IMG/VR virus record: IMGVR_UViG_3300048574_000482
Location: 1-29,149 of that record
Strand: one strand, 5' to 3'
DNA length: 29,149 bases
Source: a virus
Lineage: Duplodnaviria; Caudoviricetes
In this document: piece after piece, positions 1 through 27,101 of the stretch
Layout: the number at the start of each line of letters is the position of its first letter
Numbering within the stretch: position 1 is the stretch's first letter
Translations under genes and position numbers: made by a program
Notes under the pieces: model-generated
What the model was told of the DNA's origin: nothing
The model's database searches: none
The model's input: the letters and a program-made list of their open reading frames with translations, nothing else

Positions 1-270
1 ATGAAGAAGCGTTTTGCAATCGCGGAGCCGAAAGAGTTTTTTAGGCAAAAATATAGCCTTCTCGCTTCGGCGGAAATCGCTCAACTCATGAAGACGAAGG
101 AAAACTCTTCATGGGAAGAATGGTACGAGGCGTTGCAGTCATACGCCGACGGACTTGGTGATGATTGGGAAAGAAGTCTTGTGTCTGACTGTGGGGAAGA
201 ATGCTGGCGCGAAGCATACGATTCCGGTGATGACGTTAAAACCGCCTTCGTTGAAGGATTCACGGAATAA
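1..270 (+). CDS. Hypothetical acidic protein, possibly an integron gene-cassette ORF
   Basis: 89-aa ORF (an internal ATG at 88 is a possible alternative start); its stop codon is followed after one base by an attC-like element. Confidence 0.65.
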   Translation: MKKRFAIAEPKEFFRQKYSLLASAEIAQLMKTKENSSWEEWYEALQSYADGLGDDWERSLVSDCGEECWREAYDSGDDVKTAFVEGFTE

Positions 271-271
271 C

Positions 272-330
272 GTCTAACAACTGCTTCAACTTGATTCGCC
301 TTTGGCTCACAAGTTAAGCAAATGTTGGTT
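272..330 (+). other. Integron attC-like recombination site (59-base element)
   Basis: R'' GTCTAAC 272-278, 5-bp spacer, L'' CTT(C)AACT 284-291 with one extra base, central loop, L' AGTTAAG 312-318, 5-bp spacer, R' GTTGGTT 324-330. Total length 59 bp, directly after a stop codon. Confidence 0.8.
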
Positions 331-384
331 GATCTTTTCGCCAGAATCAGTAAATAGATTCTTGACGCCAGACGGGAGGAAGAG

Positions 385-684
385 ATGGAAAACACCGAAG
401 CATCAATAATGATTTGCGGATTGCCATATAGAATTATTTATCGAGATAGAAATTCTCGTTCAGACATGTCAATGGGGCGATGCGATTCAAAGGAATTGAC
501 AATACACATCGACAAGGAAATGCCAGAGGAGCAGCGTAAGGCAACACTTTGCCACGAATGGATTCATGCTGTACTCGATGCAAATGGAGTAGAGCATCCT
601 GAATCAGTAGCGGCTGTGCTTGGAACGGAATTGTATAGATCAGGGTTTGAGCCCTGGAAGAAACCTGACAACGGTTTAAACTAG
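385..684 (+). CDS. Small zincin-like metallopeptidase (HExxH; ImmA/IrrE-like phage protein)
   Basis: Motif TLCHEWIHAVL preceded by GRCD...TIHID; SD GGAGG upstream. Confidence 0.75.
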   Translation: MENTEASIMICGLPYRIIYRDRNSRSDMSMGRCDSKELTIHIDKEMPEEQRKATLCHEWIHAVLDANGVEHPESVAAVLGTELYRSGFEPWKKPDNGLN

Positions 685-704
685 ACCGACCCCGAACGGG
701 AGGA

Positions 705-893
705 ATGATGAAACGAAAAGAAATTGTTGGCATGTGTATTGGCGCAGTAATTGGCCTTGCCGTAAGTATCTGGCTGTTTTTCCCCTATGATATTCTTTCG
801 GCAACGATCGATGCCGGATTAAACAGGCTTTTAGCGCTTGTACCACCCGTAGCTGGCGGTGGTTTCGGATACATAGCCGGAACAAGTACCTAG
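705..893 (+). CDS. Small membrane protein
   Basis: 62 aa, hydrophobic IVGMCIGAVIGLAVSIWLFF plus a second hydrophobic stretch; GGAGG directly upstream (the second ATG at 708 may be the start). Confidence 0.6.
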   Translation: MMKRKEIVGMCIGAVIGLAVSIWLFFPYDILSATIDAGLNRLLALVPPVAGGGFGYIAGTST

Positions 894-910: not shown

Positions 911-1084
911 GTGACAAGAGCGCATAGGGCAAAATTAAACAGAATTAATCAAAGAATACTAAGAGATGCAATCCGTTTTGTACCAATAAAAGAATGTGGT
1001 AACTGTATCCTCCGGGGCGTAGAACAACAAGTTCAACTCGACTCGGAGCAGAAACAAGCGAAAATAGTCCCGGAGGAAAAATGA
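911..1084 (+). CDS. Small hypothetical protein (57 aa, CxxC), absent from the ORF track
   Basis: GGAG at 901-904, GTG at 911, translates MTRAHRAKLNRINQRILRDAIRFVPIKECGNCILRG...EEK; its TGA overlaps the next ATG (ATGA 1081-1084). Confidence 0.55.
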   Translation: MTRAHRAKLNRINQRILRDAIRFVPIKECGNCILRGVEQQVQLDSEQKQAKIVPEEK

Positions 1085-1446: not shown

Positions 1447-1471
1447 AATCATCCTTTTGGGAGGAAATAAA

Positions 1472-2833
1472 TTGGCTACGGCAACAACCATGACATGGAG
1501 AAAAGTACCTCGGGACCTTGCACGGAAACCCGAGGTTTTGTTTATCGTACGCCGGCTTCCGGAGCATCGCAAATGGCAGCCGGCCGCCGTATATCATTCT
1601 TTGTTCGCCGAAGCCGATGACTTTGGCAATGTCGACCTCGAGGACATGGAAGTGTTCGCCGATCTCTGTCTCATCACGGATATCGCGGATCTCCAGGACG
1701 TGATTGCCCGCATGCTCGAGCGTCGGATCATCACCGAGTTCGAGCCGCAGCTCTATCACCTCGTCGAGTGGGACCTTTTGTATACCTACGACGAGCGGCC
1801 CCGTATGGCACAGTCGATGACCGACCGGCGCAAGCGCATCCATAAAAAAATGACCGGCGGTAGCGCGGCTGGACTCGCCGCGGCCGCCGCCGGCGACCCG
1901 GATGTCTCCGACACCGACGTCGCCGATTTTTCGTCGTCTGAAAATGACACGAAAGCCGAAAATGTCGCTACATCTCCACATTTCGACAAAACCGGTCGAA
2001 ATGTCGACGCAAATAGAGAAGAGAAGAGAGACAAGAAAGAGAAGAGCAGAAAGAAAGAGAAGACACACACACAAGAAAGAGAGAGCCCGCCCACGCCCAC
2101 CGCCTGCGCCGGGCATAGCCCGGACTCCGGCGGTACGGGCGCGGGTCTGGGGCCTGAAGAGATAAGAGACGAAGAAATAGAACCCACAGAAGAGCCAGAG
2201 AGCACCGAGAACAAAAGAACGAGCACCGGCGAGGGAACCGAAGGGGCTCTCACAATCGAGCGAGCCGATACACATGAGGGATTCAGCACAGGCGATGCAA
2301 TCGATTCGGTAGTGAAACAAGGGGTATCAGAAAGAGCGCCACCTCCCGAGGAGTGTCTTGCCCCCCGGAAGGCACTTTCAGAGTATTTCTCACGCAATAA
2401 CCCCATGGGATACCCGAATCTCGATATCGAAGCGGGCGCAATCAAGCTGCTTTCCGCTCGTATGGCCTCTCTGGGAACTGAAAAATACAATGCCGAGATT
2501 GTAGCCTGCCAATTCGTCGGCGCATTTCGGAAGCTCATTGACTCATCGCCCTATTACAAGGACATGCCGTGCATCCCGAGCATGCTCCTAAAGCCCGGAA
2601 CCTACTCGAAAGTGTTCACGATGGTGCAGCGGGTGCTCTACCCGAAGGGCGACATGAACGTTTCGTGGGTCGAATCTTGGGAAAAAACGCTGTCTGACGT
2701 GCGAAAGTATCGGGATTCCCATGACTCCGAGGAAGAAATAGGGTTAACGTACGAAAAGTACGGCATCGATCCGAAAGATCCTGCACGATTCCAGAAGTTG
2801 CAGGCCGCGAAGAAGGGAGAAACAGGTAAATGA
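1472..2833 (+). CDS. Putative phage replication initiator / replisome-organiser-like protein
   Basis: N-terminal W-R-K...VYHSLFAEADDFGNV winged-helix-like region, then DRRKRIHKK, then a charged REEKRDKKEK linker typical of phage initiators. TTG at 1472 lies 7 nt after GGAGG and is preferred over 1457. Confidence 0.55.
   Translation: MATATTMTWRKVPRDLARKPEVLFIVRRLPEHRKWQPAAVYHSLFAEADDFGNVDLEDMEVFADLCLITDIADLQDVIARMLERRIITEFEPQLYHLVEWDLLYTYDERPRMAQSMTDRRKRIHKKMTGGSAAGLAAAAAGDPDVSDTDVADFSSSENDTKAENVATSPHFDKTGRNVDANREEKRDKKEKSRKKEKTHTQERESPPTPTACAGHSPDSGGTGAGLGPEEIRDEEIEPTEEPESTENKRTSTGEGTEGALTIERADTHEGFSTGDAIDSVVKQGVSERAPPPEECLAPRKALSEYFSRNNPMGYPNLDIEAGAIKLLSARMASLGTEKYNAEIVACQFVGAFRKLIDSSPYYKDMPCIPSMLLKPGTYSKVFTMVQRVLYPKGDMNVSWVESWEKTLSDVRKYRDSHDSEEEIGLTYEKYGIDPKDPARFQKLQAAKKGETGK
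1940..2085. repeat. Iteron-like repeats followed by a purine-rich tract (possible replication origin)
   Basis: GAAAATGACA 1940-1949, GAAAATGTCG 1958-1967, inverted pair ACATTTCGAC 1978-1987 / GTCGAAATGT 1995-2004, then an A/G-dominated tract at about 2011-2085. Confidence 0.4.
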
Positions 2834-3483
2834 GCGATCAGGCAGCATCCGAAACCGCAGTAGCGAGCCCCGAGACTTGGGAAGATCTCGTCAAAGGGCG
2901 TGTTCGCCTGTTCGTTTTGTGGTACTGCACGGACGATCTCTGTTTTTTGAACGGGACCGCGGCTTATAAGCAGGCATACCGGAAGAAAATCCCGGATACT
3001 GAAAAGTACGAGGATCCAACTGATGAAGTCGCCGCGGCGAGCGCAAGCAGACTGTTAAGAAATGTTAAGGTCAAACGCGCTATACAAATGCTCCTGAAAA
3101 CGACGAGCGACGAGGCGGACGAGCGCGGAGCGCAGCAGCTTTTGAAGGACTGGAGAACGCTCGCGTTTTACGATCCGGCGAAGATACTGACGAATGACGG
3201 AAAGTTGAAGGTTAAAAAGCTTGAGGACCTCGGACCGCTTTCGATCTGCATCAAGGCAATTGAGCGGACAGCGGATCGAAACGGAAACATTTACACCAAT
3301 ATCAAGCTATACGATCGTCGCCAGATAATGCAGGACTACGCGAAGTACCTCAACCTCATCCGGGCCGATCTCGGCGATGGCATGGCGATCCCCGTCGTGC
3401 TCCTGAACGGCAAGTCGGACCCCGCAGAATGGAATAAGCAACATGGAAACAGCGAATCAAATCCCGCGAACGGTCAGCAGTAA
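2830..3483 (+). CDS. terS: Terminase small subunit
   Basis: NGTAAYKQAY...AAASASRLLRNVKVK HTH signature, IKLYDR motif; overlaps the large terminase start. Confidence 0.85.
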   Translation: MSDQAASETAVASPETWEDLVKGRVRLFVLWYCTDDLCFLNGTAAYKQAYRKKIPDTEKYEDPTDEVAAASASRLLRNVKVKRAIQMLLKTTSDEADERGAQQLLKDWRTLAFYDPAKILTNDGKLKVKKLEDLGPLSICIKAIERTADRNGNIYTNIKLYDRRQIMQDYAKYLNLIRADLGDGMAIPVVLLNGKSDPAEWNKQHGNSESNPANGQQ

Positions 3484-4864
3484 CGTTATTTGGCAGCCGC
3501 AGCCCAAGCAGGCCGTGGCGCTCTCGTGCCCGGCGTTCGAGCTTTTGTACGGCGGCGCGGCCGGCGGCGGGAAGTCCGATTTTCTTCTGGCAGACTATCT
3601 TTCCGGCATCAATCAATGGGGCCGTGAGTGGAAAGGAATCCTCTTTCGAAAGACATACGCGGAGCTCGAGGAGATAATCTCGCGGGCCCGCGACATCTAC
3701 ATCCCGCTCGGCGCCCGCTTCAACGAGGCAAAGGCGACGTTTATTTTTCCGAACGGGGCGACGCTCAAGCTCCGTTATCTCGAGCGCATGGAAGACGTGA
3801 CCCATTACCAGGGGCACCAATACACCTGGGTCGGATTCGATGAGCTGGGAAACTACACGTCGGACTATTGCTGGCGCTTCATGGTATCCCGCTGCCGGTC
3901 CGCTGCCGGCGCGCCATGCTTTATCCGTGGCACCGCGAACCCGGGCGGCGTCGGTCACTCCTGGATCAAGGTCCGGTTTATCGACGGGTACGTGCCGAAC
4001 CGGATATACGTGGATCCCGAAACCGAGCTGACCCGTTGTTTCATCCCCTCGACCCTCGAGGATAATCAGGCGCTCATGGTGAACGATCCGCAGTACGCGC
4101 AGCGCATGAAGCTCCTGCCGCCGCAGCTCTACCGGGCGATGCGCTTCGGCAACTGGGACGTGTTCGCCGGTCAGGTGTTCGAGGAATTCGCGCGGGAGAA
4201 GAACGGCGCGGAATGGCATGTCATCAAACCGTTCGCGCTCAATCCTGGTCAGTGGTTCAAGTTCGCGGCACTGGACTGGGGCTATGCAAAACCGTTCTCA
4301 ATCGGTTGGTGGGCGGTCAACTCGGACGGCCGCATGATCCGGTACCGCGAGCTCTATGGATGCGATCCCAAGGAACAGAACGTCGGTGTCCGGCGCGGCG
4401 CGCTAGACGTTGCCCAAGAGGCGTGGGCAATCTCCGCACCCGAAGGCGTCTCGACTATCGTGGTCGACGGCGCGATCCGTAGCAAAGACGACGAGGGCCC
4501 GAGTATCTGGGAGCAGTTCGAATCCGTGGGATGGAATGTAATCGCGGGCAACAAGGACCGTGTGAACGGGATCATGCAGTTTCACCAGTCGCTCATGAAC
4601 ACCGGAGAGGACGGCAGGCCGATGCTACTGGTATTCAACACCTGCTATGCGTTCATCCGGACGATACCGACGCTCCTGCCGGATCCAAACCATCCTGAGG
4701 ATATCGACTCGAAGCTCGAGGATCATGTTTACGACGAGTCACGGTATGCCATCATGAGCGAGTTCGCGAAGAATCCCGTAAATGCGCTCCGAAAGCAGAA
4801 TGGTTCATATACGTTCGCGACACAGAAGAAGACTTGGGATCCGCTCCGGGGCATTCAGAAATAA
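3443..4864 (+). CDS. terL: Terminase large subunit
   Basis: Walker A YGGAAGGGKS, Walker B WVGFDE, coupling motif TANPGG, nuclease ALDWGYAKP and EDHVYDESRY. Confidence 0.95.
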   Translation: METANQIPRTVSSNVIWQPQPKQAVALSCPAFELLYGGAAGGGKSDFLLADYLSGINQWGREWKGILFRKTYAELEEIISRARDIYIPLGARFNEAKATFIFPNGATLKLRYLERMEDVTHYQGHQYTWVGFDELGNYTSDYCWRFMVSRCRSAAGAPCFIRGTANPGGVGHSWIKVRFIDGYVPNRIYVDPETELTRCFIPSTLEDNQALMVNDPQYAQRMKLLPPQLYRAMRFGNWDVFAGQVFEEFAREKNGAEWHVIKPFALNPGQWFKFAALDWGYAKPFSIGWWAVNSDGRMIRYRELYGCDPKEQNVGVRRGALDVAQEAWAISAPEGVSTIVVDGAIRSKDDEGPSIWEQFESVGWNVIAGNKDRVNGIMQFHQSLMNTGEDGRPMLLVFNTCYAFIRTIPTLLPDPNHPEDIDSKLEDHVYDESRYAIMSEFAKNPVNALRKQNGSYTFATQKKTWDPLRGIQK

Positions 4865-4912: not shown

Positions 4913-6586
4913 ATGACGGACAAAGAGCTCATCGAAGAAATAGGCGACGAGTTTCAGCACCTTAAAAACATCCGCGCAATATACGAGCCGGCCTGGAAGG
5001 AGGCCGAAAACTATTCTCGCGCCCATCTTTCCAACTGGGACGGATCCGACAGACGCGCTGAACGCCCTCATCGGTATTCGAGCGAAGCGGCGAACGATCT
5101 CGATATACTTGTCTCCGGGCTCATGGGCTATACCATCAGCCCAAACCTTGCCTGGATGAAATTATCGCTCGACAAGCTCGAGTGGCTCAAGATGTACGGC
5201 GTCAAGGACTGGCTCGAGAGCGTCGAGAAGAAACTCTATGCCACGTTTGTTGCGTCGAATCTCTATCCCGAGGCGCCCGCACTGTTCCGCGATGCCGGAT
5301 CATCCGGGCACGGAGTTATGCTCATCGACGAGGACGTATCAACCGGCAAGATCCGCTACACGACCCGGCAGACTCCCGAGATTTATCTCGACGTGAACGA
5401 GCACGACGAGGTCGACACGGTCTATCGCTATTTTTCCATGACCATCCGACAGATGGCCGCATTTTTCGGAAAAGAAAACCTTGACGAGAAAATTCAGCAC
5501 ATGGTCGACGACGGGAGCCAGAAACATACGCGGGTGAACGTGCTTCATGCGGTGTATCCGCGGCGAGAGCGAAATGAGGAAAGCCGCAACATCAAGGATG
5601 CGGCATGGGCATCCGTTTACGTGGACTGGGATAACCAGCACGTACTGGAGGAATCCGGATACTACGAATTCCCCTATGCCGTATTCACCTGGTCCCGGAT
5701 ACCGCGCGTAGGGTACGGCGATTCCCCTGCCCAGGACGCCATGCCGGACATTCTTCTCCTCGAGCGCGCGGAAGAATCGCGCATCATGATAGCCCAACAG
5801 TCGGCGCAGCCGGCATACAACGTACCGGAGATGATGCGCGGGTCCGAATCGGTTATTCCCGGAGGATATAACTATTTCAAGCAAGCCGATCAGCAGATAC
5901 AGCCGATCAACACCGGCGCGAACTATCCCATAACGATCCAAGTCGTCGACGGATTCCAGAAGCGCATTCGGAACTGGTTTCACGTCGATTTCTTCCTGAT
6001 GCTCATGCAGCAGGCCGCGGGCAACAAGACCGCGACTGAGGTCGTCGCGCTTCAGGGCGAGCAGGCGGCGATTCTGTCTCCCCTCATCGTCAACCAGAGC
6101 GCGGCGCTTTCGGCAATCATCAAGCGCACGTTTAACATCCTGTATCGTCAGGGAAAGATTCCGGAGCCGCCGGCGGCCCTCGCCGGATCCGGGGCCGAGC
6201 TCAAGATCGAGTTTGTCGGTCCGCTCGCGCAGGCGCAGAAGCGCTATCACCAGGCGGGCGGCATCGCGCAGAGTCTTTCCCTCGCGCAACCGGTTCTCGG
6301 CCTGTTTCCACAGTCTGGCGACCTCATCGACGGCGACGAACTCATCAAGAGTATCCTCGACAACAACGGATTCCCGCAGACGGCTCTCCGCGAAGACAAG
6401 GACGTCGAGGAAATCCGCGCGGCGCGCGCAGCGCAGGCGCAGGCACAGCAGGACCAGGCTGTCAAACTGCAACAACAGCAGATGCTTCTGCAGAACTACA
6501 ACAAGCTCAATCAGCCCACGCAGGGCGGGTCGCCGCTCGCTGAACTCGATTCGCAGCGGGCCGGATCCTTGGGAGGCCGCTCATGA
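4913..6586 (+). CDS. Portal (head-tail connector, T7 gp8/BPP-1 type)
   Basis: 557 aa after terL; motifs YGDSPAQDAMPDI, KTATEV, IEFVGPLAQAQK, Gln/Ala-rich C-terminal barrel. Confidence 0.92.
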   Translation: MTDKELIEEIGDEFQHLKNIRAIYEPAWKEAENYSRAHLSNWDGSDRRAERPHRYSSEAANDLDILVSGLMGYTISPNLAWMKLSLDKLEWLKMYGVKDWLESVEKKLYATFVASNLYPEAPALFRDAGSSGHGVMLIDEDVSTGKIRYTTRQTPEIYLDVNEHDEVDTVYRYFSMTIRQMAAFFGKENLDEKIQHMVDDGSQKHTRVNVLHAVYPRRERNEESRNIKDAAWASVYVDWDNQHVLEESGYYEFPYAVFTWSRIPRVGYGDSPAQDAMPDILLLERAEESRIMIAQQSAQPAYNVPEMMRGSESVIPGGYNYFKQADQQIQPINTGANYPITIQVVDGFQKRIRNWFHVDFFLMLMQQAAGNKTATEVVALQGEQAAILSPLIVNQSAALSAIIKRTFNILYRQGKIPEPPAALAGSGAELKIEFVGPLAQAQKRYHQAGGIAQSLSLAQPVLGLFPQSGDLIDGDELIKSILDNNGFPQTALREDKDVEEIRAARAAQAQAQQDQAVKLQQQQMLLQNYNKLNQPTQGGSPLAELDSQRAGSLGGRS

Positions 6587-25677: not shown

Positions 25678-26796
25678 ATGGTACTTGATCTTACGCTTAA
25701 TGCGATACAGATTCCAGGACTGACGACTTTCACGAAGATATTTGGAACAAAGAAGGCTGACGGGAAAGGTCTTACAACTGCTGAGGTAAATGCGAATATG
25801 CTCGCGCCGTGGAATAGGCAGCGGCCATACACGGTTGCAGAAATTTCCTCGACTGGCGTTGTTGAGGCAGACGCCTGTATCTCGATAGCTACCGGATGCT
25901 CCGCGATTACACTCGGGGACGGATCATTTACAGGAGTCCGCGTCCTCCTCATCAATACCACGCCATCGGCCGTGCAGCTCATTACCGGGCAGGAGTCTGG
26001 TTACATCCTTCCTTACCAGACGCTTGAGGTTATGTGGTTTGGCGACTGCTGGTACGTCTGCGACGGCCACATGGTTGGCGAAATCCTCAACGTGACGTTC
26101 CCTTTGACCAAGATCCCGTTCGGCTATATGTCGCTCCACAGTGGTCTTCGGCCGTCGAGAACTGCATACAAACGGCTTGCAAACACGATTCTCTACCCGC
26201 TGGCTAATGTCCCGTTTACTTGTACAACGGCTGCTCCGGCAGTTTTCACTGTCGCTGCTGGGCATGGATTCTCGGGAGGCGAACGACTTCGGCTCTTCAC
26301 GTCCGGCGCGCTTGCCGGAGCAACGCTCTCACAGGATTATTTCGTCGAGTACATTTCGACGACGACGTTCTATCTCAACACTCTTGAAGGAGGCACAGCG
26401 AGACTCGCGATCACCGCGCAGAGCGGGACGCATTACTATCAGTGCAGCGCGTATGGAGTAGGCGACGGATCGACGACAATGGATCTTCCGGACCCCCGGC
26501 AGTCGGCTTTCGTCGGAGCGGGAACTGGTACGACACATAATATCGCTTCTGTCGACTCGTATTTGAGAGGACAGTTCAAGGATGACCGTTTCCAAGGATG
26601 GAAATTGCAAATAACCAAATCTGATCCCGGTTGGGGTGGTAGCCTATGGGGAAATGGTGATGCATCAACTCGTGTAGCTAATGTAATTTATACACAAGCT
26701 ATTGTTGCAGACACAGCAAACGGTTTCGGAACTCCGCGGGTTGGAACAACCACTCGCACAAAACAACTCGGAACCAATTATCTAATCAAGTATTAG
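25678..26796 (+). CDS. Tail fibre with collar domain and variable C-terminal tip
   Basis: VGEI...IPFGY...SRTAYKRL and YGVGDGSTTMDLPDPR collar motifs; ends TNYLIKY; SD GGAGG. Confidence 0.85.
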   Translation: MVLDLTLNAIQIPGLTTFTKIFGTKKADGKGLTTAEVNANMLAPWNRQRPYTVAEISSTGVVEADACISIATGCSAITLGDGSFTGVRVLLINTTPSAVQLITGQESGYILPYQTLEVMWFGDCWYVCDGHMVGEILNVTFPLTKIPFGYMSLHSGLRPSRTAYKRLANTILYPLANVPFTCTTAAPAVFTVAAGHGFSGGERLRLFTSGALAGATLSQDYFVEYISTTTFYLNTLEGGTARLAITAQSGTHYYQCSAYGVGDGSTTMDLPDPRQSAFVGAGTGTTHNIASVDSYLRGQFKDDRFQGWKLQITKSDPGWGGSLWGNGDASTRVANVIYTQAIVADTANGFGTPRVGTTTRTKQLGTNYLIKY

Positions 26797-27068
26797 TATT
26801 TGATAATGTAATTTGTACCGAGTTGTTTTGACCGATTTACAAGGCCGGTCCGATTCGTTCTTGATGTATCAATTCCAATGACTGCTGATGATTGAGATCC
26901 ACCAGATCCAATATTGCCATTGTCTGATGCTGCGCCATATTTGTAAAACACACCAGACTGAACAGATGTAGCATGCCATCCTGTTATAGCTTGGAAATAA
27001 CCAGCAATTTTTTGCGACTGGTCATCCTTGAACTGACCACGAACGTATGAATCGACAGAAGCGATATT
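26539..27068. mobile_element. Putative invertible segment (530 bp) with two alternative tail-fibre tips
   Basis: Flanked by an imperfect 49-bp inverted repeat (26539-26587 / 27020-27068, 41/49 identical, with perfect 17-bp and 16-bp blocks). Confidence 0.85.
26793..27068 (-). other. Silent alternative tail-fibre C-terminal cassette (91 aa, no start codon of its own at the junction)
   Basis: NIASVDSYVRGQFKDD...RSKQLGTNYIIKY is paralogous to the expressed tip NIASVDSYLRGQFKDD...RTKQLGTNYLIKY. Confidence 0.88.
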
Positions 27069-27101
27069 TAGTGTAGTGAATGATTTTATGGGAGGTTGAA
27101 A

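Follow-up and report, generated by a model that had tools for sequence, protein, structure and literature searches.

The first gene of a phage genome fragment is followed, one base past its stop codon, by what looks like the recombination site of an integron cassette. Does the site belong to the phage, and which enzyme could act on it? In integrons, attC sites are recombined as the bottom strand, and the newest cassette adjoins attI. Sites of this type are reportedly known from a handful of phage genomes, where they have been explained as captured fragments. Clusters of attC occur, for example, in phage TJE1 (Qi et al. 2023, PMC9892861).

We analysed the entire virus record of 29,149 bp (hereafter the window), which is classed as a provirus, 54% complete and trimmed at its first gene, ORF1. 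The window opens at a start codon and closes at a stop codon; no contig was found running past 29,149. Its genes include those for TerS (2830–3483), TerL (3443–4864) and portal (4913–6586), all on the plus strand and assigned by family search, together with capsid and tail genes and, at the window end, a C39-like gene. A replication-initiator-like gene (1457–2833, plus strand) was named from its position. On the minus strand, 26796–27096 repeats the C-terminal end of the tail-fibre gene (25678–26796). This second copy faces the gene and resembles an invertible tail-fibre segment.

A predicted attC site behind the first gene

The predicted site spans 59 bp of the plus strand (272–330). Briefly, it consists of R'' (GTCTAAC, 272–278), a 5 bp spacer, L'' (CTTCAACT, 284–291) with C287 unpaired, a 20 bp centre, L' (AGTTAAG, 312–318), a further 5 bp and R' (324–330), which starts with GTT (324–326). 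The layout required of an attC is present throughout: R'', 5 bp and L'' on the left, L', 5 bp and R' on the right, AAC facing GTT, and an L'' that is one base longer than its partner. A294 is unpaired too and falls at an extra-base position of the family alignment. Crossover is predicted between G324 and T325. In a scan of the whole window, this geometry was unique to 272–330. It arose in 1 of 100 dinucleotide shuffles of the window, and in 10 of 100 if RYYYAAC was not demanded. The bottom strand folds at -9.9 kcal/mol, which none of 200 shuffles equalled; the probability that the R box is paired in register in the array form is only ~0.45.

We derived a covariance model, R1, from 76 of 83 distinct family sites, leaving out the window, its twin contig (see below) and sites with damaged ends. 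The preliminary description of this DNA had proposed a canonical 59 bp attC one base past the ORF1 stop and a covariance-model search as a check. Its coordinates and letters were right, and R1, a model built on our own family, scored 272–330 at 66.8 bits, the sole match in the window. Two TJE1 sites known to be IntI1 substrates from an E. coli assay (Qi et al. 2023, PMC9892861) were likewise picked up by R1, scoring 37.4 and 49.1 bits. Across the family, 51 cells changed on both sides of a pair compared with 15.5 after shuffling, a value reached by 0 of 500 shuffles; the covarying pairs number just three, since the search pattern fixed the other, outer-arm pairs and made them uninformative. 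Scans of the window for Rfam families and for tRNAs gave no match.

The best plasmid match (83%) is the attC behind aac(6')-Iae in a class 1 integron (pMAK3, NC_009982). A natural IntI1 substrate is thus among the members of the attC family. In phages, the closest match (86.5%) is an attC of TJE1. The outer arms recur in 66 IMG/VR loci, some sharing a contig, and are identical across the family over 14–16 bp. A genome collection, searched with a slightly stricter pattern, contained them in 16 loci; 7 are labelled as spirochaetes and the others are assorted, mostly MAG contigs. The aac(6')-Iae site itself (L068, 3502–3563) thus sits in a spirochaete-linked family, a hint at the origin of that cassette.

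Could the structure be a chance hairpin, or a terminator behind ORF1? The 10 shuffles mentioned above show that loose attC geometry can appear somewhere in 29 kb. However, chance does not account for the R1 score, for the resemblance to the class 1 cassette attC or for the predicted cassette boundary, GTTAGAC, which is present upstream. Nothing terminator-like was found in the region scanned. We rejected this explanation on the first three grounds and put its probability close to nil. Judged by its sequence, 272–330 is a real integron attC.

The site closes a gene cassette in an array

ORF1 (1–270, plus strand) encodes 89 aa and matches phrog_519, a family of unknown function (E = 1.5e-8). A twin contig in IMG/VR (L029/L069/L086) shares 13,480 bp with the window at 100% identity and extends 1,641 bp further upstream; single-protein searches with TerS and ORF1 returned this twin alone. 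The twin reads AATG^TTAGGT, a 366-aa gene, a 111 bp attC, G^TTATGC, a 64-aa gene, a 60 bp attC, G^TTAGAC and ORF1. The predicted cassette start is therefore where it was expected, 57 bp before ORF1 (L086, 1584/1585), and the further attC sites anticipated upstream number two. Also borne out was the proposal that 272–330 belongs to the last cassette of an upstream array: it is the last intact site, and two cassettes precede it.

The ORF1 cassette measures 381 bp, from that boundary to G324. Its ends, GTTAGAC and GTCTAAC, are complementary at 4 of 4 variable bases. For the circle that the cassette would form, the junction is predicted to fold at -13.9 kcal/mol and to have its R box paired, compared with the -9.9 kcal/mol of the array form. 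A gene cassette is defined by a single ORF bounded by G^TT crossovers and by an R' that complements R''. In the twin, three attC sites lie within 0.9 kb. No intI was found in the window or in the twin, which reaches 1,641 bp upstream, and a motif scan of both found no attI-like site. The twin thus fits the CALIN pattern of at least two attC within 3 kb without intI; a complete integron would have intI beside the array.

The cassettes are of two kinds. That of the 366-aa gene is host-type: it is 1,261 bp long with a GC content of 0.31, and its attC is 89% identical over 108 bp to a site in the chromosomal array of a Treponemataceae genome. Homologs of the 366-aa protein (77–78%) occur in Gracilinema and Termitinemataceae. 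This long, 111 bp attC was found in the twin alone. The two short cassettes, with the 64-aa gene and ORF1, have a GC content of 0.46 and leaders common to phage loci. The twin begins four bases before a crossover, and those bases, AATG, fit an attC in 106 of 115 cases and a phage array head in 1 of 22. Given this better fit to attC, the 366-aa cassette is probably preceded by further cassettes.

In P0002, 85% identical to ORF1, the sequence continues through an attC other than that at 272–330 and into the leader found here. Behind the ORF1 homologs of L093 and L094 (73–78%) there is no attC; half-sites considered there scored -26.8 and -3.3 and were dismissed as unsupported. No relative compared has an empty site at G324. 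Contigs of four public sequencing runs cover parts of the 366-aa gene as well as some phage sequence from the gene region, and no listed contig piece from these runs bridges G324 with 31 letters per side. Promoter-like sites in the first 3.2 kb of the twin are at chance level (11, with 9.3 expected). A search with an ORF1 alignment returned 47 loci, 46 of them borderline (E ~7e-4), which served solely as unrelated controls.

The array once continued downstream

The R' sequence, GTTGGTT, had been read as the mark of insertion at a foreign GTT site, on the grounds that it departs from GTTRRRY and does not pair with R'' beyond GTT. The departure is genuine and affects one position only. Within an array, R' of an attC is supplied by the next cassette, so a mismatch between R' and R'' is ordinary there. 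Moreover, the bases after G^TT do not support a foreign site. They form a cassette leader (325–384, plus strand) belonging to a next, decayed unit, and 337–387 resembles the leader behind an attC in L066, with 80% identity over 51 bp.

The leader precedes ORF2 (385–684, plus strand), which encodes a metallopeptidase-like protein of 99 aa with an HEXXH motif. It matches phrog_1233 (E = 5e-12) and, weakly and below cut-off, Peptidase_M78; a 40% homolog in G001, a relative of the window, has no attC. ORF2 ends in a left-half attC remnant (663–686, plus strand, 15.8 bits) that is fused to another leader (680–710), which shares 92% identity with leaders in L023 and L014 over a 26 bp stretch. No attC fold and no right arm were found at this remnant. 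Two small genes without a PHROG or Pfam family follow: ORF3 (705–893, plus strand), between remnants, and ORF4 (911–1084, plus strand), in the decayed part of the array. The end of ORF4 reads through a second left-half remnant (1019–1042, plus strand, 26.6 bits), which is 87% identical over 30 bp to intact sites in L014 and L025 and has no right arm. For comparison, the best background score of the left-half matrix in the window was 6.1 bits. This remnant is the last trace of the array in the window. Directly after it, 1081–1317 encodes a cysteine-rich protein of 78 aa with no family match.

A cassette leader after G^TT, and an attC left half at the end of ORF2, indicate that the array once continued. 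ORF2 is likely a former cassette gene. Most simply, GTTGGTT would be the worn start of its cassette and not a foreign site.

Arrays of the same attC family in other phages

Arrays with the same attC family sit deep in other phage records, most of which are fragments. In G001 the array lies between TerL and portal, a junction that is bare in the window. In G003 it lies among replication genes, and in G005, G021 and G515 it precedes the terminase. Core phage genes were seen on both sides of these five arrays; in the window, phage genes flank the array on its downstream side.

The units between attC sites in phage loci have a median length of 333 bp, with attC of 49–64 bp. Fully complementary ends (4 of 4 variable bases) occur in 36 of 58 units, which are not mutually independent and a few of which may span a missed site; shuffled pairing gave 4.6 such units, and at most 13 in 10,000 trials. 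Eighteen of 55 encoded proteins match PHROGs, including RtcB (2), DNA methyltransferases (2) and a recombination directionality factor. One contig (L045) contains two attC back to back in opposite orientations (2990–3046, minus strand; 4147–4206, plus strand). L024/L207, L015/L031 and L093 each have two separate arrays with their own head motifs.

Remnants such as those at the ends of ORF2 and ORF4 also recur. Counted without merging related arrays, a left-half-only site closes 14 of the 34 arrays that have at least two sites, and is internal in 1 of 83 cases. Among the half-sites listed, 10 of 17 have a ribosome-binding-like motif within 40 bases. Unrelated phage loci (886 kb, both strands) and the surroundings of host prophages (531 kb) yielded no scoring half-site.

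An attI-like motif at array heads

We placed array heads from the leader and the R'/R'' match alone, and then inspected the DNA upstream. The motif GTTAKRC-N6-GYMTAAY-N4-G^TT, counted at a leave-one-out score of 8 or more, occurs at 22 of 31 phage heads compared with 17 of 24,034 other GTT. Scanning with the motif alone returned 11 loci, of which 5 were new. Four of these have an attC or half-site 287–878 bp downstream and none upstream. The fifth is in G515, a phage that is 89% complete. Here, the motif is followed by a 2.25 kb S8-peptidase cassette (GC 0.33, 113 bp attC) and then by the phage part of the array, with a cassette whose attC is equal to attC2 of TJE1, a half-site and TerS. A host-type cassette thus lies inside a phage array. 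The 729-aa S8 peptidase gene (L208, 2525–4855), at the first array position, is possibly defence-related. A partial second copy of the motif is found just before the G515 head (L208, ~2474–2497). We also considered that arrays might start with the right half of an attC, and rejected this. On a matrix for that half the heads have low scores, and what they carry is the attI-like motif.

The same motif was sought in hosts. Of 32 host intI loci, 24 have as their best GTT, by our reading of the scan output, the apparent attI, which lies just past a co-oriented intI and ahead of a leader. In 17 of these 24, the site beats all 20 shuffles. We infer that the head motif is a spirochaete-type attI. In G051, a second, palindromic copy lies directly past the intI stop (L143, 1454–1477), ~340 bp before the apparent attI and with no GTT behind it.

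The integrase and the host

The enzyme had been suggested to be a host or a phage IntI. The host part of the suggestion is favoured, as 36 of 121 genomes from the family of the likely host have IntI, and it passed the cut-off in 4 of 5 spirochaete-labelled genomes that carry the attC family. A phage IntI is not: family TIGR02249 was detected in 0 of 49 phage records (including 10 with a completeness of at least 90%) and in 0 of 4 more. This search covers IntI only and does not list, for example, the ordinary phage integrase of G021.

Relatives of TerL (55–63%) are present in prophages of 10 of 401 genomes of the spirochaete order to which G051 belongs; one more is 42% identical. Together with the homologs of the 366-aa protein, they point to a free-living spirochaete as the probable host. 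No attC, half-site or head motif was found in 78 loci with TerL relatives (the best 80 of 329, minus the twin and G001), and R1 had no match in 17 stretches around TerL from 11 host genomes. Hence, the trait is patchy. It seems to follow the host lineage across unrelated virion types and not the phage family of the window.

How the cassettes may move

Our preferred interpretation, which we consider probable, is as follows. The attC at 272–330 closes a 381 bp cassette, the last intact one of an array of at least three; the array likely belongs to the phage and is likely served in trans by a host IntI. Its starting point is what the window and twin contain: a cassette with complementary ends, two cassettes upstream and remnants downstream. 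A head motif laid out like the site behind spirochaete intI is seen in other phages, not in that of the window. Acting on prophage or infecting DNA, host IntI would insert circular cassettes at G^TT, the newest first. Most cassettes would come from a pool of small phage genes with 49–64 bp attC, and occasionally a long, host-type cassette would enter. Old cassettes at the far end would lose the right arm of their attC and could no longer be excised. Such loss would turn them into ordinary phage genes, as may have happened to ORF2–ORF4.

Sites behind homologous gene ends bear on this scheme. We compared 10 such pairs, and the next cassette differs in all 10, which fits exchange at G^TT. However, the attC core also differs in 7 of the 10, with one borderline at 0.77. 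This counts against our interpretation, because a crossover of IntI at G^TT does not produce core differences; another process is needed, such as recombination across the conserved arms. Different cores between identical arms are seen in L030/L034, L037/L061, L019/L038 and L011/L057.

Taken further, cassettes of integron origin might now be swapped by homologous recombination or gene conversion across attC arms, with IntI acting seldom or never. The 14–16 bp of arm identity and a RecT-like gene in G515 are in line with this idea, as are the core differences; half-sites and ORF1 homologs without attC show that decay occurs. Conversely, complementary cassette ends (36 of 58), compensatory pairs (51 compared with 15.5) and an attI-like head are features that serve IntI. 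We consider it unlikely that homologous recombination has taken over in this way. The two processes may act together.

Ownership of the array

Alternatively, the prophage might lie in or against a chromosomal integron array of its host, with the two short cassettes being phage-type but the 366-aa cassette and everything beyond it being host chromosome. One route would be for IntI to join a phage site to a host attC, integrating the entire phage. The provirus label and the cut at ORF1 agree with such an arrangement, and so do the host-type cassette in the upstream array and the AATG before it, which fits another attC. Furthermore, no integrase or repressor was seen in the window, and the window ends at a C39-like gene; in the unrelated phage G515, a C39 gene is followed by the head motif. 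Set against this, no prophage inside a host array was present among the records examined. G515 demonstrates that a host-type cassette can be carried within a phage array, and the twin is classed as a linear virus record that includes the 366-aa gene. G021 is also at odds with the idea. It is a prophage that matches a scaffold of an IntI-bearing Spirochaetales genome without a difference over 8,057 bp, and it has its own integrase and a mid-genome array. An apparent case of G021 abutting intI in G050 was wrong, as the two are on separate contigs. We regard a host-owned array as a real but lesser possibility.

A specific version is that an integrase-less provirus was docked into the host chromosomal integron by host IntI, through its own attI or attC, as a giant cassette. 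The order would then be host attC, G^TT, phage cassettes, virion genes, lysis gene, phage attI and host cassettes. We think this rather unlikely. If true, spirochaete phages and their hosts would share one cassette economy, exchanging genes and whole phage genomes.

Implications

One layout recurs in many unrelated phages of one host group: a likely docking site, short cassettes that carry phage genes, a terminal half-site and no integrase. This suggests that phages keep a working cassette platform that uses a host enzyme. The borrowed enzyme likely lets them gain and swap small accessory genes. The layout makes several predictions testable, namely the action of IntI in trans on phage DNA, cassette exchange between host and phage, and fixation of genes through loss of half an attC. 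In addition, it provides a sequence marker to predict spirochaete hosts for unassigned phages.

Comparison with known systems

The closest known systems are the CALINs of phages, 17 of which were described by Qi et al. (2023, PMC9892861). As in TJE1, cassettes bounded by attC lie in phage DNA without intI; the attC family is the same and methyltransferase cargo recurs. The main text of that paper describes no distinct phage cassette pool, terminal half-sites or link to spirochaetes. Its sole attI-headed CALIN is in a cryptic Shewanella prophage that itself has intI. Qi et al. read the palindrome preceding the TJE1 array as a terminator. In our analysis it matches the attI-like head, with a spacer of 3 bases instead of 4, and spans the junction of the record (HQ225832, 49197–49219 plus 1–10; loci L212 and L067). 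The recorded host of TJE1 is an actinobacterium, although its attC family is spirochaete-linked.

Sedentary chromosomal integrons of the Treponema type (Wu et al. 2013, PMC3607928) share the attC arms, and their attI layout behind a co-oriented intI matches the phage head. The units differ. Nineteen host units next to intI in G051 measure 350–1,896 bp, with a GC content mostly of ~0.32 and attC of 109–127 bp; the phage units, with the shorter median and attC lengths given above, have a GC content of ~0.45 and no attached intI.

According to a study of SALINs and attG insertion (10.1101/2022.09.11.507474), cassettes can be delivered by IntI to places outside an integron and can become fixed when their attC is lost. 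Taken alone, the window looks like a SALIN; the twin contig reveals an array instead, and the sequence after G^TT opens a cassette leader and is not a genomic GWT site. The class 1 cassette of aac(6')-Iae (NC_009982) has a similar attC (83% identity). It differs in being plasmid-borne, with intI1 and attI1 present and a resistance gene as cargo.

Our literature search, which left most subscription journals outside, found no paper on attI-headed, integrase-less arrays in spirochaete phages. Arrays of attC in phages were already known; the present variant stands apart through its attI-like head, a cassette pool separate from that of the host and the half-site at the array end.
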